The notes below the pieces were generated by a model. It had not been told where the DNA came from. It did no database searches and was given only the letters and a program-made list of their open reading frames with translations. A program made the position numbers and the translations under genes. A stretch of DNA of 64,000 bases from a virus, in IMG/VR virus record IMGVR_UViG_3300045988_101835, one strand, 5' to 3'. Positions 3,666-53,239 of the stretch are shown one piece after another. Numbering within the stretch: the stretch's first letter is position 1; each line of letters opens with the position of its first letter.

Positions 3666-3697
3666 TTTGGAGGTGTTAATTTAATTTACTATCTTTG
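3666..3697 (+). promoter_or_regulatory. Bacteroidota-type promoter (-33 TTTG, 20 nt, -7 TAtcTTTG)
   Basis: tttg at 3666-3669 and tatctttg at 3690-3697. Lies in the intergenic gap before ORF 3726. Confidence 0.6.
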
Positions 3698-16924: not shown

Positions 16925-16956
16925 TTTGCATAATTAAATTAACTTTCTTATCTTTG
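16925..16956 (+). promoter_or_regulatory. Bacteroidota-type promoter (TTTG, 20 nt, TAtcTTTG), part of a repeated promoter-leader cassette
   Basis: tttg at 16925-16928 and tatctttg at 16949-16956. The cassette repeats at 32971-33053. Confidence 0.65.
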
Positions 16957-27032: not shown

Positions 27033-27043
27033 ATTGCATTAAT

Positions 27044-27075
27044 TTGTTTATTAAATTAATTATACTTATATTTGT
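27044..27075 (+). promoter_or_regulatory. Bacteroidota-type promoter (TTTG, 20 nt, TAtaTTTG)
   Basis: tttg at 27044-27047 and tatatttg at 27068-27075. Confidence 0.65.
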
Positions 27076-32973: not shown

Positions 32974-33005
32974 TTTGGATTATTAAATTAACTTTTCTAT
33001 CTTTG
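32974..33005 (+). promoter_or_regulatory. Bacteroidota-type promoter (TTTG, 20 nt, TAtcTTTG), second copy of the promoter-leader cassette
   Basis: tttg at 32974-32977 and tatctttg at 32998-33005. Confidence 0.65.
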
Positions 33006-34318: not shown

Positions 34319-34350
34319 TTTGCAAAAATAGTATTCTATTCTTATATTTG
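34319..34350 (+). promoter_or_regulatory. Bacteroidota-type promoter inside the IS, driving tnpB
   Basis: tttg at 34319-34322 and tatatttg at 34343-34350, with 20-nt spacing. Confidence 0.6.
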
Positions 34351-34369: not shown

Positions 34370-35500
34370 ATGTTGACCTACAAGTACAAACTCTATAGGA
34401 CGCATCGGACCATATGGTTGGATCGGATGCTTCGTGAGTGTGCGTTTGTATGGAACCATGCGCTTGCACTTCAACGTAGATACTACCATTTGTACGGTAA
34501 GTACGTTTCGTCGGTAGATATGCAGAAGCATTTCGCCAAACGCATCAAGCGGCATCTATTGTACTCACATAATAGCGTTGAGGTATTACAGAGATTGGAC
34601 GCAGCTTACCAACGGTTCTTCAAGAAGCTTGCTAAGCGTCCGCCTAAGTTTCGCCGGGCTTCAGACTTTCAGTCATTCGTCTACAAACTCCACTATGGCT
34701 ATAAAATAGACGGCAATTGCTTTACAATTAACAGACTTAAGAAAACTTATAAATTTCACAAATCCCGTGACTTTGCGGGTGCAATAAAGACGGTTCGTGT
34801 TAAACGCGATCCATGCGGTGACTTTTGGTTATACATTACAACCGATGCCAAAGTAGAAGCCAGCAACACGACATATGATGGTGCGGTTGTAGGAATTGAC
34901 TTTGGCCTTAAGACATATCTGACGTTATCCGACGGGCGCAGCTATGCGAACCCGCAATTCTTCAAGCAGACGCTGCGCGACATCCGTAAGGCGCATCGTC
35001 GGCTGAGCCGTTCCGTCAAAGGATCCAATAACCACCGCCGTCGGTGGTTGGAGCTTGGTCGGATCTACCGTAGGATTAGCAATCATCGCGACGATTATCA
35101 GTGGCGCTTGGCACATGAGTTATGTCGTCGTTATTCTACGATCTGCTTGGAGACACTAAGCCTTGACGGGATGCGCCGGTTGTGGGGTCGCAAGGTTTCG
35201 GATCTCAGCCACGCATCGTTCGTATCGCACTTGGAATTCGTAGCCACTAAGTATGGCACGAGCGTTGTGCATGTCGACAAGTGGTTTGCTAGCAGCAAGA
35301 CGTGTAGTTGTTGCGGATACGTTAATAAGGAGCTTCGTTTGGTTGCTCGATCGTGGGTTTGTCCACAATGTGGTACGCACCATGATCGTGATCTAAACGC
35401 GGCGTTAAACATTAAGCGTTCGGGCATGGGCGCGTTGATTAGTGGTTGTAAGTCCGCTTCGGCGGCCGCCATGCTTGAGTCAAGAATCCAGCGGCTTTAG
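34370..35500 (+). CDS. tnpB: TnpB RNA-guided endonuclease, copy B
   Basis: 376 aa. VVGIDFGLK, ICLETLS and HDRDLNAALNI motifs. CSCCG...CPQCG zinc ribbon. Confidence 0.9.
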   Translation: MLTYKYKLYRTHRTIWLDRMLRECAFVWNHALALQRRYYHLYGKYVSSVDMQKHFAKRIKRHLLYSHNSVEVLQRLDAAYQRFFKKLAKRPPKFRRASDFQSFVYKLHYGYKIDGNCFTINRLKKTYKFHKSRDFAGAIKTVRVKRDPCGDFWLYITTDAKVEASNTTYDGAVVGIDFGLKTYLTLSDGRSYANPQFFKQTLRDIRKAHRRLSRSVKGSNNHRRRWLELGRIYRRISNHRDDYQWRLAHELCRRYSTICLETLSLDGMRRLWGRKVSDLSHASFVSHLEFVATKYGTSVVHVDKWFASSKTCSCCGYVNKELRLVARSWVCPQCGTHHDRDLNAALNIKRSGMGALISGCKSASAAAMLESRIQRL

Positions 35501-35537: not shown

Positions 35538-35603
35538 CGGGTTGGGTCCTTAAGATTAAGTCTACTCTCTCGGATATGGGTGTTTCTTTGAACAGTGATT
35601 TTT

Positions 35604-37880
35604 ATGGCTGGGGGAAATAGTACTACTACTTTAGCGAATCTTTATCGTCCCAAGACTTTTGCGGACGTCGTGGGCCAGCCTTTGGCGGTTACCACCTTGA
35701 AGCGTATTGCCCATGCGGACGGTATCGCCGCACGTGCTATTTTTATGAAGGGTGCGTTTGGCTCCGGTAAAACTACGACTGCCCGTATTTTTGCTAGAGC
35801 TTTGAACTGTGATACTTTCAAGCAGACTGACGATGTTTGTAATACGTGTGATGGTTGTCTGGAGGCTTCGTCGGTTAATTCCTCTACGTATTGGGAGCTT
35901 GATGGTACAGTCATAGGTAACGTCGAGGGTATTCGTGCTCTGAAGGAGCGCTTGTCTATTGTTCCTAATGGTCGTAGGGTTGTCTGTCTTGACGAAGTTC
36001 AGAGTTGCTTGTACTATAATACACCTGTAGTGTGTGTATCAGATGACGGCAGTATTTACCGTCAGCCGATTCACAAGATTGTTAATAATCGGCTACCTGT
36101 GAAGGTTCTTTCGGTTAACGCTGCGGGAGGTCTTTGTGTTTCTCGTGTTACGGGTTGGTTTAAGAATCCTCTTAAGCAGTTATGTCGTATTAAGGTACGG
36201 GGCGCTTCTGGTCTTAAAAAGATTGGTTCTGGCTCGCGGGTAATAGTTTGTACTTTAGATCATCGCTTTTTACGTTCGGATGGTGAGTATGTTTGTGCTT
36301 CGGACTTACATTTAGGAGATTCGTTGTCATCTTTTTTTAGTGTGTGCGGGGATCGTTTTATTCAGGCAGAGCTTAATAAGCGTACTGAGTATATCATTTC
36401 CGATTCAACAAAGTCGTTCCTTTATGGGAGTCTTTTGGGTGATATGTACTTTTCTTCTGGTGATGTAAATTACAATTATCGTTTGAAGTGCACTCATGGA
36501 CATGTTCAGCTTTTTTGGTTACGTGAGAAGCATCGTATACTTGGGTGCTTAGCTGGGGCCTTGCGGGAGTTTGTTAGCTCGCCGGGTGCTTATGTTGATT
36601 CAGTTTCTGTTATGAATTCGTTGAGTCATCCTTTATTTACCGAGATGGCGAGAGTTTGTTGTGGTTCTGATGGGAAACGTCACGTAAATATGGAGTGGTT
36701 GTCTCATGTCGACGAGATAGGGTTAGCTGCTTGGTTTATGGATGATGGTTCTTATCATTTTCGTCGTTTGCGTAATAAACAGGTAACCTGCTTGCATGGG
36801 GTTCAACTGTCTACTCATAGCTTTACTTATGAGGAAAATGAACTTTTAGTTAAGTGGTTATCTGATCGTTGGGGTCTAGATTTTTATATTAGGGTTGATA
36901 AGAGATGTGGTAAGCCTTACTTAGTTTCTAGTCATGTTGAGTCTGCTAGGAAGTTTTTAGCACTTGTTGCTCCTTTCCTTTGCAAGGAGTTTCAATATAA
37001 GTTAGGTAACACTTTTGAGGCTGGTGGTGGTGTTAGGTCTATTCCAGCAATTTCCAAGCGAGTCCCGGAATACTTCGGCGGTTTTTTATTCGATGGGGTT
37101 GTCGAGAGTATTGAGATTTTTGACCCTCCGAAGTACTCATCTGTTAAATCTGGCTGTTTGTCTAGCGAGAATAAATATCCTTATGATAATGGTTGGGTAT
37201 ACGACTTGGAGGTAGCAGATACTCATTCTTATATTGCAGGCCGGGGATTTGTGGTTCATAACTGCAGCAGGAGTGCGAGTGACGCTTTATTGAAGGTTGT
37301 CGAGGAGGGAGTTCCTAATACGATCTTTCTCTTTTGTGGCACGGAGGATATCCAGCCAACTTTAAAGTCTCGTTGTGTAAATATTGACATTTCGGTTATT
37401 CCTTTGTCTTTGATTGCGGATCGCGTTCGGTTTATAGCTAACGACCGGGGTATCTCTATTACGGATGATCAGCTTCGAATCTTGGCTATGAAGTCTCAGG
37501 GTCACATGCGGGATGCCCTTCAGTTGCTTCAGTTTTACGAGCTTGCGGGCGAACGTGCTCTTGACAGCTCCTACTTCTTGTTCCGGGAGTTTGTGCGCTC
37601 TTGCTTCGCAAAGGGCGCCGATCCTTCGTCCGTTTTGCCAAAGCTGTTGGTTTATTCCACTGCAGATATAAAGATGTCTGTAGGGCTTCTTATTCGCAAT
37701 ATTTTCGGCAGTGTTCAGGATGACTCTTTGGAGTCTAAGTTCCAGCGTGCGGGTCTGGGTCAGACGTTGTTTAGCTTTTTCTTTTCTCCGTTAGCTCAGC
37801 AGGCTTTGGGTTCTGAGATTGGGACAGAGATTTTGCTTAGGTCTTTAATGGAGCGAACTGCGGGTTCTCGAAAGGTGTAG
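35604..37880 (+). CDS. Clamp-loader AAA+ ATPase (DnaX/RFC/gp44-like) interrupted by an intein
   Basis: LYRPKTFADVVGQ, Walker A GAFGSGKTT, Walker B CLDEVQS, then after the intein SASDALLKVVEEGVP and LKSRC. Confidence 0.85.
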   Translation: MAGGNSTTTLANLYRPKTFADVVGQPLAVTTLKRIAHADGIAARAIFMKGAFGSGKTTTARIFARALNCDTFKQTDDVCNTCDGCLEASSVNSSTYWELDGTVIGNVEGIRALKERLSIVPNGRRVVCLDEVQSCLYYNTPVVCVSDDGSIYRQPIHKIVNNRLPVKVLSVNAAGGLCVSRVTGWFKNPLKQLCRIKVRGASGLKKIGSGSRVIVCTLDHRFLRSDGEYVCASDLHLGDSLSSFFSVCGDRFIQAELNKRTEYIISDSTKSFLYGSLLGDMYFSSGDVNYNYRLKCTHGHVQLFWLREKHRILGCLAGALREFVSSPGAYVDSVSVMNSLSHPLFTEMARVCCGSDGKRHVNMEWLSHVDEIGLAAWFMDDGSYHFRRLRNKQVTCLHGVQLSTHSFTYEENELLVKWLSDRWGLDFYIRVDKRCGKPYLVSSHVESARKFLALVAPFLCKEFQYKLGNTFEAGGGVRSIPAISKRVPEYFGGFLFDGVVESIEIFDPPKYSSVKSGCLSSENKYPYDNGWVYDLEVADTHSYIAGRGFVVHNCSRSASDALLKVVEEGVPNTIFLFCGTEDIQPTLKSRCVNIDISVIPLSLIADRVRFIANDRGISITDDQLRILAMKSQGHMRDALQLLQFYELAGERALDSSYFLFREFVRSCFAKGADPSSVLPKLLVYSTADIKMSVGLLIRNIFGSVQDDSLESKFQRAGLGQTLFSFFFSPLAQQALGSEIGTEILLRSLMERTAGSRKV
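36006..37262 (+). mobile_element. Intein (419 aa) with a LAGLIDADG homing endonuclease, inserted after Walker B of the clamp loader
   Basis: Starts at Cys (CLYYNT), block B TLDH, LYGSLLGDMYF and LAAWFMDDGSY, ends VVHN followed by +1 Cys. Confidence 0.85.
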
Positions 37881-40108: not shown

Positions 40109-43100
40109 ATGGGGTCAGTTAAGGATACGATACAGCGTCGGGGTGGTGTTGCTTCTGCCGTCAGCGACTTGCTTCTTACGGAGCGCAAGCTAGTAGGATT
40201 TCGGGAGTTTATTCTTTCTCCAGACTATATGGCTTTGGAGGGGGTCTATCCTTTCTGGTTGAAGGAGGCAGATAACATGCAGGATGACTTGTCTTCACTG
40301 GTGTTGACAGGCTCATTAGGAGGCGGCAAGTGCGTAGTTTACAGCGACTTGGTATCGACGGATCATGGGTACGTTCCTATTGGGTCTTTGGTTCCAGATG
40401 CGGGTTATGGCTTCACACCGTTCGAGGTTGGTGTCGAGCAGCCAGATGGTAGCTTTGCGCAGACGAGTCATTTCTACAAGGAGAAGGACGCGGAGGTGCT
40501 TCACTTGCGTTGTGCTAGTGGTCGGAGTTATAGTGGTACTGCGGATCATCCTCGGTTAGCTTATCGTGTCGGCTCGGATCGCGTTGAGTTGGTTCGCTGT
40601 GGCGACTTGCGTGTCGGTGATTATATCGCCCGCCGTTGGACAGGTAGTATCGAGTTGCATCCGGACGCAGATGAGGCTAAGCTTTATTGCTTGTATGGTG
40701 TCTGGCTTGGGGATGGTCATTTTGATAATGCTGTTCCTCACAATCCAGTTATAGGTTATTTGTCATGTGATACTTTAGCTGATTGGTGTCGTGAGGTTGA
40801 AGGCTATTTGACGAGTAATGCTCATATTTGTAAAGAGAGTGGCTGTCGGTTATATTCGTTGCCGTTGTATCGCTCTAGGCTTCGTGATTTTATAGGTGGT
40901 TACTGTGTCGCTAATACGAAGTATATTCACAGTGCTGCTTTCGGAAGTCGTGAGCGTGCATTTTACACGTTGTATGGTTTGCTTATTACAGATGGGTATG
41001 TAAATAAAGGTCATGGGACGCTTGGGTTTGCTACAGTTTCTCCGCGTTTGGCGGATGGTGTATGTAGCATTCTCGACTATCTTGGTTTGCAGTATAGCAT
41101 CCGGAAGCGTACAGATCGCAAGTATTTTTATAAGAAGGTTGGTGAGTGGCGTCCGGCGCAGGACAGTTATCGGATAACTATATCAGTTGAGTCATCGCAT
41201 GCTTTATACGATGCTATGCTAGCTTACGTTCCTCTCCTTGAGATGGATGCTCCGCATCAGCGTCGTCTTATTGAAGGGCTTCGTGCAGATTTTGAGGCTC
41301 GTGCTAGTAAGAGTTCTCGAATAAACTGTAAGACTACTTTCAAGTTAGAAGGTGCTGAGGTTGGCATAGTGGCGCAGCTGCGTTCGGTTCGTCAGTTGAC
41401 GGATGTGTCGACGCGAAATAAGTTTGATTCTTATGCTAGGACTACCCATTCTATGTTGGGGAATAAAGCTGCATCCAATCAGGCTTTCGAACGTTTGCGA
41501 GCGTGGTTGGAGGATCGAGGTCAGACGTTGCCGGACAACTTGGCTTCTTTTTGTGATGTTCGTTTTGACCGAATTGAGAGTATTGATACGACGGTTGAGG
41601 ATGTTTATGATGTTACAGTTCCTTCGACGCATTTGTTCATGTCGGGGAATGTGGTGAATCATAATACGTCTTACCTGAATATGGTTACTTGCTATAAGTT
41701 GTATTGCTGGTTTAGTCAGGGCGACTTGTATAACTATTTTCAAATCCTTCGTGGTACGCCTATTTACTTTTTGTACTTCTCTGTATCGATGAAGGCTGCG
41801 GAGCGTTCTGGTTTCAAGCAGTTGCGACAGATGATTGATAATGCCCCGTGGTTTAAAAATAATTTTCCGCGCCGTAAGGACATTCAGTCTTCCATTCAGT
41901 TTAATAATAATTTCTCAATTGAGTTTGCTTCGGGTGAGAGTCATGCTATTGGTTTGAATGTCGTTGGTGCTATTATTGACGAGGCTAATTTCAGGAATGG
42001 TGTCGGTCAGGGTACTGTTTCAGAGTATTCGGAGGTCCAGCGTTTGGCTCAGCAGTTGGAGGACCGTATGCATTCTCGTTTTACCCGTGAGGGCGGTAAG
42101 TTGATTTCTTTCATGGGGTACATTTCCTCGGCTTCTTATCAGTCTTCGTTTATCGAGGAGAAGGTTGCCGAGTTGGCATCTGATCCGCAGGGTCGTGTTA
42201 TTAATGCCGTTCAGTATAAGATTTGTCCTCAGAATTACTCGCCTAAGAAGTTCGAGGTGTTCTGTGGCTACCAGCAGATTTCCCCGTGTATTGTCCAGAG
42301 CAAGGAGCATAAGGCTACGCTTGTGAAGTCTATGAGTCTTCCGAAGTCTAAGGCGGAGGGTTATTTCGAGCGTGTTCCGGAGGATCTGAAGTCGCAGTTC
42401 AAGAAGAACATCTATCTGGCCATCCAGAATCATTGCGGACGTTCTACAGCGGCTAAGGGTAGCTTCATCACGAACTATGATGTCGTTCGCAAGGCGTATA
42501 GTGATGCGTTGCTTCGTGCGTGTCCTTTGGTTCAGAGTAGTATTGTTGTCTCGGATCAGGACGATACTCCTATCCGCTCTGTTCTGGATATTTCACGTTT
42601 ACAGTATACGGATCGTCCTCATGCCCTGTGCTTGGACTTGTCTTTGACGGGCGACCACGGTTCTTTGTGCTGTGTTCGGTTTGATGGCTATGCGGCAGAC
42701 GGCAGGGCTTTGCATAATGAGGTTTTCAACTTAGAGCTTGTTCCTCCGGCGTTTCCGGGGATGTTGAAGGTTTCGAAGGTCGAGGATTTCATTTTGTGGC
42801 TTGCAGAGCATTTGAATATTGTGGTTTTTAGTACTGACCAGTTCCAGTCCACGCAGCTTCGTCAGAATGTGTGCGAGGCTTTGATGCTTCCGGATATCCG
42901 CCTTTCTTTGGATAGTTCCGACATTCCTCATTTGTTGTGGCTTTCGATGTTAGTTGACGAGCGTCTTGGTCTTCTTTACTTGGAGCGTCAGGATCGAGAG
43001 ATTCGGGAGGCGGTCCATGATGTTGTCAAGCATAAGGTTGTCAAGCGTGACGGGTCTTCAGACGACCAGTTCCAGACTTTGGTCGGTGCCTTCTTCTTGT

Positions 43101-43414
43101 CGGAGACGATCTGTACGCAGGAGGGGGATATATCGTCCTTGCTTGATGCGCGCCTTAACTTGGTTGGTGCAGGTAATATTAACCGTATGCTTAAGTCGCT
43201 TGGCTATGGTGGCGTTGCTTTGGATGGCCGGGGTCAGGTTGCCCGTGCTGCTGTTTCGGACGTCGAGGCTCCGCGTCCGAGTGTCCGTTCGCTTCTGGAG
43301 GGTCGTGCTGCTTCGGGTCCGTCGTTTACGAGTTCTGATGTTATTGCTTCGATGACGCCGCGTCGTAGACGTGGTGGTGTCTGGGATTTGATTAATGGTT
43401 TGGGCGACAAGTGA
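40109..43414 (+). CDS. terL: Terminase large subunit interrupted by an intein
   Basis: The P-loop GSLGGGK|...|TSY is reconstituted after intein removal. Walker B-like GAIIDEANF. Sits upstream of the portal-size gene. Confidence 0.85.
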   Translation: MGSVKDTIQRRGGVASAVSDLLLTERKLVGFREFILSPDYMALEGVYPFWLKEADNMQDDLSSLVLTGSLGGGKCVVYSDLVSTDHGYVPIGSLVPDAGYGFTPFEVGVEQPDGSFAQTSHFYKEKDAEVLHLRCASGRSYSGTADHPRLAYRVGSDRVELVRCGDLRVGDYIARRWTGSIELHPDADEAKLYCLYGVWLGDGHFDNAVPHNPVIGYLSCDTLADWCREVEGYLTSNAHICKESGCRLYSLPLYRSRLRDFIGGYCVANTKYIHSAAFGSRERAFYTLYGLLITDGYVNKGHGTLGFATVSPRLADGVCSILDYLGLQYSIRKRTDRKYFYKKVGEWRPAQDSYRITISVESSHALYDAMLAYVPLLEMDAPHQRRLIEGLRADFEARASKSSRINCKTTFKLEGAEVGIVAQLRSVRQLTDVSTRNKFDSYARTTHSMLGNKAASNQAFERLRAWLEDRGQTLPDNLASFCDVRFDRIESIDTTVEDVYDVTVPSTHLFMSGNVVNHNTSYLNMVTCYKLYCWFSQGDLYNYFQILRGTPIYFLYFSVSMKAAERSGFKQLRQMIDNAPWFKNNFPRRKDIQSSIQFNNNFSIEFASGESHAIGLNVVGAIIDEANFRNGVGQGTVSEYSEVQRLAQQLEDRMHSRFTREGGKLISFMGYISSASYQSSFIEEKVAELASDPQGRVINAVQYKICPQNYSPKKFEVFCGYQQISPCIVQSKEHKATLVKSMSLPKSKAEGYFERVPEDLKSQFKKNIYLAIQNHCGRSTAAKGSFITNYDVVRKAYSDALLRACPLVQSSIVVSDQDDTPIRSVLDISRLQYTDRPHALCLDLSLTGDHGSLCCVRFDGYAADGRALHNEVFNLELVPPAFPGMLKVSKVEDFILWLAEHLNIVVFSTDQFQSTQLRQNVCEALMLPDIRLSLDSSDIPHLLWLSMLVDERLGLLYLERQDREIREAVHDVVKHKVVKRDGSSDDQFQTLVGAFFLSETICTQEGDISSLLDARLNLVGAGNINRMLKSLGYGGVALDGRGQVARAAVSDVEAPRPSVRSLLEGRAASGPSFTSSDVIASMTPRRRRGGVWDLINGLGDK
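40331..41665 (+). mobile_element. Intein (445 aa) with a LAGLIDADG homing endonuclease, inserted in the TerL Walker A loop
   Basis: Starts at Cys (CVVYSD), block B TADH, LYGVWLGDGHF and LYGLLITDGYV, ends VNHN followed by +1 Thr. Confidence 0.85.
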
Positions 43415-44128: not shown

Positions 44129-45649
44129 ATGTATACTGGGGGTTTACAGTCATTAGGTTTAATGTTGGCGAATTTCCTCGGCATTCCGCCGGGGGTTTCG
44201 CTTCGTAGGACATACGGGAATCGCGGCACTTCCGCTAATGGGAATGGCTTGTCGGAGATTCTTGCCAATCATGATTTCATTAATTCGATTGTGGACATCA
44301 CGTCGGATGACGTGTGCGTAGGTAATTCTCCCGTGTACGTTTCGGGTCTGTCGTCTATTTCGAGTCCTGTTCTTAAGCAGCGCACGGAGGACATCTGTGC
44401 CGCTTTGAATAAGATCGTTCGTTGGGCTGCTGTCGACTTACTGAAGCATGGGTTGTCGATGTATGTTTTTCATTCTTACGAGGATCGTGTTGCGGGGCGG
44501 GTTAAGGCTTCGCTTGTTCCCTTCGTTGAGGATGTTAAGATTTACATGAAGCGTGACGGTTCTATTGTTTTCTATGATACGAAGGATCGTGTTGTCGAGA
44601 ATGTTCTTGTGTTCTTGAACTATTCTAAGGAGTCTCTGGTTAAGATTGAGTCCGGGTCTCATGACAATTCGATGTCGGACGCCGAGTGGGATGAGATGCT
44701 CTATGAGGTTACGCCGGAGCCTATTCAGCTTAAGAACGTTTCATCGGTTGCTCAGGACTTGTATGGTCTTGAGCGTTCTATGTATAGCTATCGCAATAAG
44801 TTGGCGCGTATCGTGCGGTTTATAACGGTTGATGTCGGTAACTCGCAGGGGGAGCGCACTCAGGAGATTATAGACGATATATCTCAGACTATCAATGCTG
44901 ATTCTCAGTCGTTACAGCCCACGATGACGCCCAACACGGATTTTGCGGACGGTATCTCTATTCATCCTCACCGTAAAGGTATCGGCAAGCCGGAGCTTGT
45001 TGAGAACGTTCCGGATTTCGATATTTCGAAGATGGCGGACTTGGATTATACGCTTGGTCGTCTTTTTCTGGCTACTCGCTTTCCTAAGACGTATGCCGAC
45101 TTTAACACGAATTTGAATGAGACTACTGTTTCGTTGATTCGTGGTGATATTCGGTATGCTCGTATGGTTGCTCATTGCCGCTTCAATATTGAGGATACGA
45201 TTAACAACTGGTTCCGGTCTTCGTCTAAGGAGCTTGACTCGTCGGATGTTTACTTCCGGTTGGTTAAGTTGCCTACGTCGGAGGATACGGATGTTGTCGA
45301 TACGCTTACGTCGTTTGCGGAGTTTTCCAATAATTTCATTGAGACTTTGGATAACGCAGAGACGCGTGAGGCGGCTCTCAATTACCTTCAGTCTATGGAG
45401 TCATTGTTGGATGATACTTCCAACTTGAGTTCGGTTCAGAATTGGTTCGAGCTTATGCGTTCGTACATCAACGATAAGTTCGATGCTTTGGACCGTGACG
45501 AGGAGAATGCTGCCGCGCAGGAGGCTGCCGCCCTTGAGGGGCTTGGTGCTTCGCTTCCGGCGGACGAGGGCGCTGCTGAGGATGCGGTTGCTGCAGATAT
45601 GGCTGCTGCCGCGGAGGAGTTCGAGGCACCGCCTGCAGTTCCGGAGTAG
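44129..45649 (+). CDS. Candidate portal protein (gp20-size)
   Basis: 506 aa. Lies downstream of terL in a T4-like head module, with an acidic C-terminus. No motif-level confirmation. Confidence 0.45.
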   Translation: MYTGGLQSLGLMLANFLGIPPGVSLRRTYGNRGTSANGNGLSEILANHDFINSIVDITSDDVCVGNSPVYVSGLSSISSPVLKQRTEDICAALNKIVRWAAVDLLKHGLSMYVFHSYEDRVAGRVKASLVPFVEDVKIYMKRDGSIVFYDTKDRVVENVLVFLNYSKESLVKIESGSHDNSMSDAEWDEMLYEVTPEPIQLKNVSSVAQDLYGLERSMYSYRNKLARIVRFITVDVGNSQGERTQEIIDDISQTINADSQSLQPTMTPNTDFADGISIHPHRKGIGKPELVENVPDFDISKMADLDYTLGRLFLATRFPKTYADFNTNLNETTVSLIRGDIRYARMVAHCRFNIEDTINNWFRSSSKELDSSDVYFRLVKLPTSEDTDVVDTLTSFAEFSNNFIETLDNAETREAALNYLQSMESLLDDTSNLSSVQNWFELMRSYINDKFDALDRDEENAAAQEAAALEGLGASLPADEGAAEDAVAADMAAAAEEFEAPPAVPE

Positions 45650-45674
45650 GCTTGGAGTATGCAGGTATAGGTTG

Positions 45675-45713
45675 GACGGAGGGTTATGCTATGGTGTTGC
45701 TCTCCGTCTTTTT
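45675..45713 (+). terminator. Terminator hairpin (gacggag-N20-ctccgtc-ttttt)
   Basis: 7-bp stem followed by T5. Confidence 0.55.
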
Positions 45714-45723
45714 GGTCTTAGGA

Positions 45724-45755
45724 TTTGCATAATAAAATTAATATCTTTATATTTG
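45724..45755 (+). promoter_or_regulatory. Bacteroidota-type promoter driving the toxin cassette
   Basis: tttg at 45724-45727 and tatatttg at 45748-45755, with 20-nt spacing. Confidence 0.65.
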
Positions 45756-45776
45756 TGTTATAAAATTGGTGACTTT

Positions 45777-46028
45777 ATGAGTGACTTTATAACTGCAATT
45801 TGTGATTTTGAAGATGATGATGCTCGTCCTCTTTCGGAGCGGGTCAATGATGCTGACTTTGACGAGGCTGCGTGGTTAGCACAGGCTACGGAGGATGCAC
45901 GTGCGGAGGGGTTTGCTGATCCTGAGCGTGTAGCTCGCAATTATCTTTACACTCTGCGTCATCCTTTTGAAGAGCGAGTGCCGTTGGAGGATGTTTTAGC
46001 TAAGCTTCGTGCGACTTACGGCATATAA
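45777..46028 (+). CDS. Small acidic protein, paralog 1 (candidate antitoxin)
   Basis: DFDEAAWLAQATEDARAEGFADP...PLEDVLAKL. Overlaps the toxin start by 20 nt. Confidence 0.6.
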   Translation: MSDFITAICDFEDDDARPLSERVNDADFDEAAWLAQATEDARAEGFADPERVARNYLYTLRHPFEERVPLEDVLAKLRATYGI

Positions 46029-46299
46029 GGTTGTTTTTCGTAAGTCTGCTTTAAAGGCTTTTGAGAAGTATATCGATAGGATTCAGCCAGCTAGGCGTGC
46101 GAGAGCTTTAGAGGTGGTAGAGTCTTTAGCTGTTTCTCCACGTAGTGGTATTGGAGCCAAGCATATGCTTAAGGGTTCTTTTAATAGGCGGTGGGCTTGT
46201 TCTGTGACTCCTTCGGCGCGGCTTTTGTATCATATTGAGGATGATGTGTTGGTAGTCGATATATTTGATTTTAGTGTTGATCATTATAGGGATGTTTAG
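46009..46299 (+). CDS. YoeB/Txe-like (RelE superfamily) toxin
   Basis: YKVVFRKSALKAF..., LKGSFNRRWACSVTPSARLLYHIEDDVLVVDIFDFSVDHY resembles YoeB [33 protein letters not shown]. GTG start. Confidence 0.7.
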   Translation: MRLTAYKVVFRKSALKAFEKYIDRIQPARRARALEVVESLAVSPRSGIGAKHMLKGSFNRRWACSVTPSARLLYHIEDDVLVVDIFDFSVDHYRDV

Positions 46300-46309
46300 C
46301 TTTGACTCT

Positions 46310-46477
46310 ATGGATTTTGATGAGTCTGCGTGGTTAGCACAGGCTACGGAGGACGCGCGTGCGGAGGGTTTTGCTAATCCTCGTGAGGTGGCTGTTTCTT
46401 GTTTGGATGTTTTACGCAAGCGTCCCATGAAGACAATCACTTTGTCTGAGTTTCTCTCTAAGTATCGTTCTGAGTGA
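46310..46477 (+). CDS. Small acidic protein, paralog 2
   Basis: MDFDESAWLAQATEDARAEGFANP...TLSEFLSKY. A 69-nt core is about 90% identical to paralog 1. Confidence 0.55.
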   Translation: MDFDESAWLAQATEDARAEGFANPREVAVSCLDVLRKRPMKTITLSEFLSKYRSE

Positions 46478-46505
46478 TGTGTGCTTTTAGGCATTTCGTG
46501 GGGTT

Positions 46506-46697
46506 ATGTGTTTAATTGATTACGATTTCGATTCTCCGGATTTTGATGAGTCATCTTGGCTTGCTGCCATGTCCGATGCTTTAGCGGCGGAGGGTTTTGC
46601 TGACTCGGATGCAATGGCTCGGGACCTGTTGGAGAGTCGACGTCATCCGGAGCAGGTATGCTCTCTGGAGGATGTATTTGCAGAGTTTGGGTTGTAG
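46506..46697 (+). CDS. Small acidic protein, paralog 3
   Basis: DFDESSWLAAMSDALAAEGFADS...SLEDVFAEFGL. Confidence 0.55.
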   Translation: MCLIDYDFDSPDFDESSWLAAMSDALAAEGFADSDAMARDLLESRRHPEQVCSLEDVFAEFGL

Positions 46698-46715: not shown

Positions 46716-47345
46716 ATGGCCAAGCAGAATAAACCAATAAGATTGACCAAGTCGAATACCCGCAAGTATCCGAGCAGTTCGCCTTCGCGTAGTAGCTCCG
46801 TTATGAAGACGAAGCCGTCGTCTTTGAATTATAAGAAGTTTCTCTCTGAGCGAGATTTCTTGAAGGTCGCTAAGCGTGCAAGCATGGTGCAAGGTTGGTC
46901 CTTGTCCTCCATTGACTTCGCAGGCAATGAGCTTCGCTTCTTGGTTAATTCTGTAACACGTCCCGGCATTAAGTATACGATTATCGTTCAGGTCAATCCC
47001 ATTGCTAAGAGCGTGATGATCGACAAGAAGGCTAAGCTGTATAAGATACTGCAGGACGCGGGTTTGAAGATATTTTGCAGTTGTCCTGCTTGGGGTTACT
47101 TCGGCTACTCTTATAAGGCTTGGCGTCAGGGCTATGGTATATTTCCAGAGACACGTTATCCTCACATTCGCAATCCACATTTGCGCGGCTTCGTGTGTAA
47201 GCATTTGCATTATGTGATGCGGCTCTGGCCCTTCCTTTCTCGACAGATTGCGAAGCAGTTCCGGGATTACTGGACTAAGGAGCAGTTGGAGCAAATTGAT
47301 GATGCTATTGAATATGCTTTGAAGGGTATCAAGATTGATTTTTAG
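46716..47345 (+). CDS. SWIM zinc-finger protein
   Basis: CSCPAWGY...CKHLH is the CxC-Xn-CxH SWIM signature. Confidence 0.6.
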   Translation: MAKQNKPIRLTKSNTRKYPSSSPSRSSSVMKTKPSSLNYKKFLSERDFLKVAKRASMVQGWSLSSIDFAGNELRFLVNSVTRPGIKYTIIVQVNPIAKSVMIDKKAKLYKILQDAGLKIFCSCPAWGYFGYSYKAWRQGYGIFPETRYPHIRNPHLRGFVCKHLHYVMRLWPFLSRQIAKQFRDYWTKEQLEQIDDAIEYALKGIKIDF

Positions 47346-47399: not shown

Positions 47400-47445
47400 C
47401 CTCGGGTGTTGCATGACGTCAGTCGTGCAATGTCCGAGGGTTTTT
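47400..47445 (+). terminator. Terminator (cctcgg...ccgagg outer stem with an inner ttgcatgac/tcgtgcaa stem, then T5)
   Basis: Read directly from the sequence. Lies in the spurious 5' extension of ORF-track ORF 47364. Confidence 0.6.
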
Positions 47446-47449
47446 GTTT

Positions 47450-52198: not shown

Positions 52199-53239
52199 AT
52201 GTTTTCGGGGATTATTTATTTACGTATTAGTCCTAGTAATAAAGGGTATGTTGGTCAGACTATTGACGAGGCGGGCCGCGATTGGGAGTTTGGTAATTTA
52301 AATAAGCGTTATGGTGGTGCAGCCATCGAGGCCGCACGCCGTAAGTATCCTCCTTCGTTGTGGCGTAAATTCACTATATGTACGGTTAACGCTCGTAATC
52401 GGGACGAGCTTCGAGTTTGGCTTGATGCTCTGGAGGTATATTACATTTGGGCTTTCCAGACTGCCGATAAACGGTATGGTTACAATGCGAAGCTAGGAGG
52501 TAATAGTCGTGGTGGGTATCGTCATTCGGAGGAGACACTACGCAAGATAGGTGCTGGTAATAAGGGGAAAGTTGTTTCTCCGGAGGCACGCGCTATAATT
52601 GCGTCTAAGCTGCGAGGACGTAAGCGTCCTTTGTCTGCTTGTGTAAAGACTTCGTTGGCTATGCGAGGTCATGTGTGGTCTCCGGAGACTTGTGCCAAAC
52701 GTTCGGCAGCTTTACGGGGTCGTAAGCTACCTCCTAATAGCGCTGTATTTTCGGAGGAGTATCGTCAGCGTCATCGTGAGTTGTCTGCTGGTCGTCTTCA
52801 TAGTCAGGCTGCTAAGAATAAGGTTTCTATTTCTAAGGGTTATCGTCCCGTTCTGGTTTATGATCGCGCTTCGGGTTCTTTTCTTGGTGAGTTTCAGACG
52901 CGCGTAGAGGCTGCTGCTCTTGGAGGTATACTTCCACATCAGATAGCACAGTCTTTTTCTGCACATCCGGGCGCGTTGTGGGTGTGCATTAAGAGTCATG
53001 TGTATGCATCGTCTGATCCTTCGTTGTCACGTGTTTCTCTTTGTGACAATGGGTATACTCCGGTTCTTCCTCCGTCGCAGCGTTCTATTAGCTGTGTCTC
53101 TTTACGCGGCAAGGACTTGGGTTGTGATAGCTTGTCAGGCTGGGAGTCTCGTCTAGGCATACGTCGTAATAATATTCTCCGTGTTTGCAATGGTGATCGA
53201 AATGTTGCTGGCGGCTACGTTTTCCGCTATGTAGGCTAG
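52199..53239 (+). CDS. GIY-YIG homing endonuclease with NUMOD3-like repeats (free-standing)
   Basis: GIIYLRISPSNKGYVGQT, YGYN, repeated H/S.E(E)T..K(I/L)....G modules, GGYVFRY at the C-terminus. Confidence 0.8.
   Translation: MFSGIIYLRISPSNKGYVGQTIDEAGRDWEFGNLNKRYGGAAIEAARRKYPPSLWRKFTICTVNARNRDELRVWLDALEVYYIWAFQTADKRYGYNAKLGGNSRGGYRHSEETLRKIGAGNKGKVVSPEARAIIASKLRGRKRPLSACVKTSLAMRGHVWSPETCAKRSAALRGRKLPPNSAVFSEEYRQRHRELSAGRLHSQAAKNKVSISKGYRPVLVYDRASGSFLGEFQTRVEAAALGGILPHQIAQSFSAHPGALWVCIKSHVYASSDPSLSRVSLCDNGYTPVLPPSQRSISCVSLRGKDLGCDSLSGWESRLGIRRNNILRVCNGDRNVAGGYVFRYVG

Follow-up and report, generated by a model that had tools for sequence, protein, structure and literature searches.

A 64,000-nucleotide stretch of viral DNA (IMG/VR record IMGVR_UViG_3300045988_101835; here called the window) carries, between its portal and head-fibre genes, a small cassette that encodes three paralogous acidic proteins, A1, A2 and A3, and one basic protein, T, which resembles the YoeB and RelK toxins. 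On balance, we favour the view that this cassette is a type II toxin-antitoxin-like moron that is polymorphic and prone to decay, with an antitoxin devoid of any DNA-binding domain, in an uncultured gut phage of about 135–140 kb that would have a T4-like head. The analysis combined searches and structure predictions for the encoded proteins with a reading of about 30 corresponding loci (L numbers below) on related contigs. These contigs, the largest of them 134–140 kb long, derive from samples of human gut and, in one case, of rabbit gut. Portal proteins are about 99% identical among these contigs.

The identity of T was examined by family profiles and by its predicted fold. T matched the Pfam family PF05016 (ParE_toxin) with 26.8 bits, above the gathering cut-off of 23, while its scores for PF06769 (YoeB_toxin, 23.4 bits) and TIGR02116 (21.4) lay below the respective cut-offs of 27 and 51.8; it also matched the RelE-like toxin family phrog_1213 (E = 5.4e-6). 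The related loci carry two further toxin types, T' and T'', both of which have precomputed PF06769 matches, and a profile of all three phage types retrieved RelK (1.2e-8) and YoeB (8.4e-8) from the PDB. The AlphaFold2 model of T (predicted local distance difference test score, pLDDT, 84) has a microbial ribonuclease (RNase)-like alpha/beta fold, in which two N-terminal helices pack on an antiparallel sheet as expected of the RelE/ParE superfamily. Foldseek matched this model to RelK (3oei), YafQ, YoeB (2a6r) and the A. tumefaciens YoeB/ParE protein (6n90), with template modelling (TM) scores of 0.73–0.84 and a probability of 1.00. Against annotated plasmid Txe/YoeB toxins, among them those of Prevotella and Elizabethkingia, T'' shows 31–35% identity across 97% of its length. 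Judged by sequence and modelled structure, T is a genuine RelE-superfamily protein and probably a divergent YoeB/RelK-family toxin, a new member of a known toxin family, in agreement with the initial annotation of the window, which had called T YoeB/RelE-like from the letters alone.

The catalytic residues of E. coli YoeB are Glu46, Arg65, His83 and Tyr84. Their counterparts in T are R71, H92 and Y93 (for R65, H83 and Y84), none of which varies among the three toxin types. Of the catalytic residues, whose absence had been named at the outset as grounds for refutation, three are thus conserved and the glutamate, discussed below, is replaced. Across the three types, the active-site loop PRxGIGxKHxLxG is 69% invariant and the C-terminal FSxDHYxDV block 70% invariant, compared to 23–27% elsewhere in the protein, and pN/pS (the ratio of non-synonymous to synonymous differences per site) within type T'' is 0.12–0.16. 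From these patterns T is likely to be catalytically competent. A search for cellular relatives of T in 185,579 species genomes gave a sole match, which was the same phage in a Muribaculaceae metagenome-assembled genome (MAG) bin, and a word-based search for T relatives with informative neighbours yielded a single orphan YoeB, distantly related, on a contig of 1.1 kb.

The relationship between A and T was most apparent from the arrangement of the locus in related phages. The A proteins are modular, consisting of an N1 leader (present only in the first gene of an array), a core of type cA or cB, and a tail of type t1, t2 or t3, the tails having diverged to roughly 30–36% identity by eye. Five architectures were seen among the related loci: A-T-A-A, two kinds of A-T-A, A-A and single A. 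The window and L010, L011, L019, L020 and L028–L031 have N1.cA.t1 / Tw / cA.t2 / cB.t3, where Tw is the window toxin type; L007–L009 have N1.cA.t2 / T' / cA.t1; and L012–L015 and L017 have N1.cB.t3 / T'' / cA.t1. The toxin-less form N1.cA.t2 / cB.t3 occurs in L001–L006, L021, L022 and L027, and a single chimeric A gene in L016 and L026. The three toxin types are mutually 44–47% identical, and each is preceded by a different A tail type. In every toxin-bearing locus read, T is flanked by A genes on both sides, and the start and stop codons of A and T overlap or abut in all three toxin-bearing architectures. When L007 was aligned with L012, identity was 33–63% exactly across the upstream tail and the toxin, whereas the promoter, the N1 and core region and the downstream A gene were highly identical. 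Both families are restricted to one and the same clade of phages, and the two complement each other in charge, with isoelectric points (pI) of 4.0–4.8 for the A proteins versus 9.7–9.8 for the T proteins. This positional, translational and co-variation link, together with the clade confinement and the complementary charges, is hard to explain unless A and T cooperate. To judge from these comparisons the A-T link looks functional, and toxin-antitoxin would be the simplest functional link between the two.

The A proteins themselves could be placed in no known family. Alignment of A1, A2 and A3 gave 18 invariant columns, including DFDE..WLA and AEGFA, bearing out the paralogy and shared motif that had been noted initially. 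Within tail types, pN/pS was 0.11–0.59 for t1 (mostly 0.11–0.30), 0.04–0.15 for t2 and 0.07–0.38 for t3, and these values, mostly 0.04–0.38, indicate genuine coding genes. The AlphaFold2 model of A1 (pLDDT 78, core 86–93) has helices at residues 30–43, 49–61 and 70–81, so that A is predicted to be a small acidic three-helix protein. No match to the A proteins was found in Pfam, NCBIfam, PHROG or PADLOC, and a search of Pfam and NCBIfam with 11 A members at E ≤ 10 returned nothing. The concern that A might belong to a known family unrelated to toxin-antitoxin systems was therefore not borne out, since no family was recognised even at this threshold. The same Pfam and NCBIfam searches, again including E ≤ 10, found no ribbon-helix-helix (RHH), helix-turn-helix (HTH), Phd or AbrB domain in any A protein, consistent with the lack of an obvious RHH or HTH domain remarked on earlier. 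PF02604 (Phd/YefM) did not match A even at E ≤ 10. A resemblance of A to the putative addiction module component antitoxins was considered as well, but their models PF09720 and TIGR02574 did not match A, and a consensus-like query retrieved no plasmid members of that family. An A-family profile searched against the PDB gave only chance HtpG matches (E = 0.4), Foldseek of the A model retrieved no structure with E below 3 from either the PDB or BFVD, and no meaningful match came from tblastn searches of plasmids and phages. An HMMER search of 1.84 billion representative proteins retrieved clade members and a few long, unrelated proteins (417–5,140 aa, matching over short stretches only), and scans of metagenome and viral sequences found A in the same phages only.

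One candidate relationship was tried and rejected, namely that A corresponds to the C-terminal half of a YefM-type antitoxin. Likenesses can be seen by eye between DE(A/S)AWLA and EETAYLL, between ARAE and a Prevotella toxin partner, and between LEDV..L and EL..FL. However, hhalign of A against the E. coli, M. tuberculosis and S. aureus YefM proteins gave a probability of 0.1%, aligning only the 11-column DEaaWLA / EETAYLL segment, and the probability was again 0.1% against the Prevotella and Elizabethkingia partners. The YefM likeness was not used as evidence for this reason.

The charge of the A proteins bears on a further suggestion of the initial annotation, that they are acidic DNA-mimic-like anti-defence proteins. 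As such they would block restriction or other DNA-binding defences. The strongly negative net charges of A1 (−11) and A3 (−13) fit such a role. However, the net charge of A2 is only −3, searches of the PDB and BFVD with the predicted three-helix fold matched neither Ocr nor ArdA nor any other mimic, and the type-specific linkage to a toxin would be left unexplained, making DNA mimicry extremely unlikely.

The cassette has its own promoter but is not a closed unit (Table 1). The four open reading frames (ORFs) and the terminator after the portal gene were present as the initial annotation had described them. The hairpin of this terminator (45674–45709) has a folding free energy (dG) of −20.1 kcal/mol with z = −3.44, none of 200 shuffled sequences (0/200) folding equally well, and the terminator is kept in relatives. 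A Bacteroidota-type promoter follows. The motif TTTG-N18-22-TAnnTTTG occurs 10 times within the window, all on the + strand, compared to an expectation of 1.98. Four copies (16925–16956, 27043–27074, 32974–33005 and 45724–45755) share a ATTAAATTAA-like spacer, indicating that the cassette promoter belongs to a promoter class of the phage itself; further TAnnTTTG-type motif sites lie at 3666, 34319 and 52052. Every gene from the portal through the SWIM-like gene lies on the + strand, A1 overlaps T and T in turn overlaps A2, and the toxin and its small partner genes are adjacent behind one promoter. The ATG of the longer, 61-aa form of A2, which is also the length called for product P0001, overlaps the T stop codon. 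No terminator was found between A3 and the SWIM-like gene, meaning that the transcription unit runs from the promoter through A1, T, A2, A3 and the SWIM-like gene to the strong terminator beyond. The cassette is thus not autonomous: the earlier description of an autonomous unit with a host-type promoter was right about the promoter and wrong about the autonomy.

Table 1. Features of the cassette and its surroundings (positions in the window; aa, amino acids; nt, nucleotides; bp, base pairs).
Feature	Position	Strand	Description
Portal gene	44129–45649	+	T4-type; Portal_T4
Intrinsic terminator 3' of portal gene	45674–45714	+	11-bp stem with internal 4-bp stem, then U-tract
Promoter	45724–45755	+	Bacteroidota-type; −33 TTTG 45724–45727, 20-nt spacer, −7 TATATTTG 45748–45755
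12-nt tandem repeat	45769–45792	+	GTGACTTTATGA / GTGACTTTATAA; holds A1 start codon
A1	45777–46028	+	83 aa, pI 4.2, net charge −11; N1 leader, core type A, tail t1; first gene of unit
69-nt core repeat, copy 1	45855–45923	+	in A1
23-nt repeat, copy 1	45985–46007	+	end of tail t1
T	46009–46299	+	96 aa from GTG 46009, pI 9.8; ends ...SVDHYRDV
A2	46292–46477	+	61 aa (55 aa from ATG 46310), net charge −3; core type A, tail t2
69-nt core repeat, copy 2	46313–46381	+	in A2
A3	46506–46697	+	63 aa, pI 4.05, net charge −13; core type B, tail t3; last A gene
23-nt repeat, copy 2	46666–46688	+	end of A3; spacing 681
SWIM-like gene	46716–47345	+	209 aa; outside the A and T families
Strong terminator closing the unit	47400–47449	+	18-bp stem 47400–47439, then GUUUUUGUUU U-tract; dG −30.3, z −4.49

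The location of the cassette raises the question of a structural role. In T4, the genes for gp67, gp68 or internal proteins (IP) come after the portal gene, and the A genes lie directly 3' of a T4-type portal gene, in a module with a protease and a gp23-like capsid gene. Being small and acidic, the A proteins could be prohead-core or internal proteins of this kind, with no part in toxin neutralisation. We consider this very improbable, because individual phages have anywhere from 1 to 3 A genes, which are chimeric, the sole A copy is frameshifted in L026, and the unit has its own promoter, terminator and a SWIM-like gene that is disrupted in some relatives; furthermore, A has no head-protein match in PHROG.

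Deletion junctions in the related loci point to recombination between the A genes. The two 69-nt core repeats in A1 and A2 are identical at 62 of 69 positions (90%), the degree of identity reported initially, when it was taken to mean that the duplication is recent. That conclusion did not survive. Five of the seven differences are synonymous, giving pS (synonymous differences per site) of 0.33 and pN of 0.037, while pS of the portal gene between strains of the phage is 0.02–0.16. Since the core pS at least equals the divergence of portal strains, the A1/A2 duplication is, by this sequence measure, old, and the predominance of synonymous differences indicates that core identity is maintained by constraint on the protein rather than by recency. 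Removing exactly the 458 bp that separate the 69-nt repeats turns the window arrangement into that of the toxin-less L001–L004. In L016 it is exactly the 681 bp from one 23-nt repeat to the other (45985 and 46666) that are missing relative to the window, which leaves a single t1/t3 chimeric A gene. These two repeat-bounded deletions indicate at least two losses of the toxin through recombination between A paralogues, after each of which an intact chimeric A remained.

In some toxin-less phages the remaining A genes are themselves damaged. The only A gene of L026 is frameshifted by a 1-nt deletion and its −33 element is mutated to CTTG; the L026 product is carried by three contigs, one of them shown at 135.5 kb. 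The first A gene of L005 lacks its ATG because a copy of the 12-nt tandem repeat has been lost (aligned; L005 position ~4095), and L006 shares the same product (P0009). It appears from these sequences that A genes can decay in some toxin-less lineages after toxin loss.

The window toxin itself may be affected. The ancestral toxin ATG (46018–46020), which in relatives overlaps the A1 stop codon as ATGGCATATAA, reads ACG in the window, a change that is silent for the A1 protein encoded in the overlapping frame (TAT to TAC). The only start left is a GTG three codons upstream of the ACG. The ACG allele is also present in L028 (which represents 16 further similar places, themselves unread) and L031, while ATG is kept in L010, L011, L019, L020, L029 and L030. 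The sequence change suggests that the window toxin allele may be attenuated or silenced.

These losses are also pertinent to a different role for T, as an RNase that the phage deploys to shut off or remodel host translation, with the A proteins regulating its timing or dosage. T4 RegB, which has a RelE/YoeB-like fold, would be the model. Conservation of the T active-site blocks across types is in keeping with this proposal, as is the use, for driving the genes, of a phage promoter class that operates at several genome sites. However, T is dispensable, having been deleted at least two times independently; its ATG is lost in a common allele; and it sits in the head-gene region (terminase, portal, protease and major capsid) rather than among recognisable early genes. 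We therefore regard a host-takeover function as quite improbable.

Several observations weigh against the toxin-antitoxin interpretation that we favour. The A proteins are unlike any known antitoxin in sequence or fold. The plasmid relatives of T pair with Phd/YefM partners: the Elizabethkingia and Cupriavidus partners are annotated Phd/YefM, and the Prevotella partner, annotated hypothetical, aligns with the Elizabethkingia antitoxin. YoeB Glu46 corresponds to His52 in all three phage toxin types, within an invariant KH motif. The window toxin, having no ATG, may be weakly expressed or not expressed. The pairing of tail with toxin is drawn from three architecture types. Lastly, A is under purifying selection between the toxin-less L001 and L005 (14 synonymous and 11 non-synonymous differences with t2 and t3 pooled; Fisher p ~1e-4), implying that A may function independently of T, for example in counter-defence or in protecting against sibling-phage toxins.

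This last point leads to the alternative that the A proteins are accessory proteins with a main job unrelated to T, for example inhibiting host RelE/YoeB-type abortive-infection toxins or another host factor, and that T is a hitch-hiking moron inserted into an A array. Besides the selection seen between toxin-less lineages, no relative is without an A gene, whereas only a subset have T. There are precedents for such a role. T4 uses the antitoxin mimic Dmd as a counter-defence. Phage orphan antitoxins are established in this capacity for DarTG: T4-like phages encode DarG-like proteins (PMC11825919), and a vibriophage encodes an antitoxin mimic (PMC11481870). These resemble the A-A and single-A relatives in being antitoxin-like genes without a toxin. 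They differ in that they are homologues or mimics of host antitoxins and act on host toxins, whereas here the toxin is within the phage itself in most lineages and the toxin-less forms are deletion derivatives. Independent insertions would not be expected to give three toxin types, 44–47% identical, at the same A-flanked site with overlapping codons and co-varying tails. The one A retained in every phage is the mechanical outcome of deletion between A repeats, and A decays in some toxin-less phages. Furthermore, no cellular A homologue was found among the 1.84 billion representative proteins, and hence there is no sign of host-antitoxin mimicry. Taken with these points, a T-independent role for A is rather unlikely. 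Of the three possibilities listed in the initial annotation, an addiction or exclusion module fits best, the DNA mimic is without support (no Ocr/ArdA-like fold match, and A2 at net −3), and an array of antitoxin decoys gains a little from the purifying selection on toxin-less A but is without homology support.

Comparison with characterised systems shows what would be unusual about a toxin-antitoxin module of this kind. It resembles YefM-YoeB and RelJ-RelK in the fold and sequence family of the toxin, with the R65, H83 and Y84 equivalents kept, and in having a small acidic gene directly upstream and translationally coupled to it. It differs in that the A partner is not Phd/YefM and has no N-terminal DNA-binding or dimerisation domain, in the change from Glu46 to His in the KH motif, and in having partner paralogues on both sides of the toxin, in the head region of a large phage. 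The closest functional analogy is with paaR2-paaA2-parE2 of the E. coli O157:H7 cryptic prophage CP-933P, in which the 63-aa antitoxin PaaA2, lacking a DNA-binding domain, neutralises the RelE/ParE-superfamily toxin ParE2 and the module relies on outside regulation (PMC8630535). An antitoxin free of DNA-binding domains, which the initial annotation had called atypical for YefM/Phd antitoxins, has a precedent within the toxin superfamily in PaaA2 (PMC8630535). The likeness is an analogy and not family membership: the A-family profile did not retrieve PaaA2 from the PDB, which contains PaaA2-ParE2 (5cw7 and 5czf), and the phage locus differs in its YoeB-type toxin, its several antitoxin-like paralogues and three toxin types, and in that no dedicated regulator gene was identified at the locus.

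The toxin-antitoxin interpretation suggests the following mechanism. T would be a divergent ribosome-dependent mRNA endonuclease of the YoeB/RelK type, and the acidic A proteins would bind and neutralise this basic toxin directly. The upstream, translationally coupled A copy would be the cognate antitoxin, A1 being the proposed partner of the window toxin type, and the variable C-terminal tail would set specificity, matching t1 with the window toxin, t2 with T' and t3 with T''. Downstream A copies would be additional or orphan antitoxin alleles. Since A lacks a DNA-binding domain, its expression would follow the phage promoter rather than autoregulation, by the same logic as in PaaA2-ParE2. 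The conserved A cores act as direct repeats and so make the locus unstable; recombination between them would delete or swap the toxin, always leaving a chimeric A, and A decay would follow. The pay-off for the phage may lie in exclusion of, or competition with, sibling phages, or in selfish persistence.

A more specific proposal is that the locus is a polymorphic toxin-immunity system in phage-phage conflict, in which each YoeB-like type is neutralised only by its matching tail (t1, t2 or t3), the extra A genes are orphan immunity genes, and A has a new antitoxin fold. We regard this as unlikely. On this view, the downstream A alleles would protect the phage or its cell from the toxins of co-infecting siblings, toxin-less A-A phages would be immune 'cheaters', and the flanking A repeats would allow cassettes to be exchanged or lost by recombination. 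Such a system would be a phage-level counterpart of the orphan-immunity arrays of contact-dependent inhibition (CDI) and the type VI secretion system (T6SS). The CDI cdiA-CT/cdiI, T6SS effector-immunity and Bacteroidales acquired interbacterial defence loci are polymorphic, with orphan immunity arrays. By analogy only, the phage cassette shares with them diverged toxin types with matching variable partners, adjacent extra alleles and recombination through conserved flanks; their toxins are secreted or delivered by contact, whereas that of the phage would be an intracellular YoeB-type RNase.

From their sequences, both the family of A partners and the A-T-A(-A) sandwich, in which three types co-vary, appear to be new variants of the type II toxin-antitoxin theme. 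If A neutralises T, then A would be a new antitoxin family for YoeB-type toxins, short, without a DNA-binding domain and so far restricted to phages. The locus would then show a toxin-antitoxin module evolving inside a large gut phage, with toxin and antitoxin tail diversifying together, antitoxin paralogues on both sides serving as recombination handles, and loss proceeding stepwise through loss of the toxin start codon, repeat-mediated toxin deletion and antitoxin decay. The natural 3 × 3 set of toxin and tail types constitutes a specificity matrix for studying how antitoxin specificity is encoded, and could help to tell whether phages in a gut rich in Bacteroidota turn such modules on one another or on the defences of the host.

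The surroundings of the cassette gave some indication of the host. Searching the cassette region by blastn against cultured phages gave no match. One related contig (L017, CANQWS010000007.1, 88 kb) is the same phage binned into a rabbit-gut Muribaculaceae MAG, a weak hint that is consistent with the Bacteroidota-type promoters and with the Maribacter (Flavobacteriia) phage matches of the SWIM-like gene. The phage host is probably in the Bacteroidota. The SWIM domain match of the 209-aa product had an E value of 0.011, below its Pfam cut-off. Its only homologues in cultured phages are in the Maribacter phages Molly and Colly, where the gene lies beside a DNA ligase gene and not in the head module, and it is split or truncated in L005/L006 and L029/L030.

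On the − strand, two ORFs (46126–46494, 122 aa; 45758–45940, 60 aa) mirror the conserved A cores and T, and are most likely not genes given the pN/pS values of the + strand. The mechanical start of the head-fibre ORF, TTG 47364, would read through the terminator stem at 47400–47439, and ATG 47494 (MAKLIPMVREF...) is a likelier start. Neither Rfam families nor tRNAs were detected when the window was scanned for them.

Mobile elements are dense near the head module, with a TnpB/IS605-like transposase at 34370–35500 and a homing endonuclease after the capsid gene at 52199–53239. The bare promoter motifs at 34319 and 52052, which lack the shared spacer, precede these two selfish genes. The large terminase (40109–43414, 1101 aa) has an apparent intein with a LAGLIDADG endonuclease, as seen from Pfam matches on the same-length L005 and L007 homologues, and the clamp-loader gene (35595–37880) has a LAGLIDADG homing-endonuclease insert. 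Between the SWIM-like and head-fibre genes, L001 and L002 carry a TnpB insertion (L001 5261–6451), and L005 and L006 a NUMOD homing endonuclease (L005 5826–7007).

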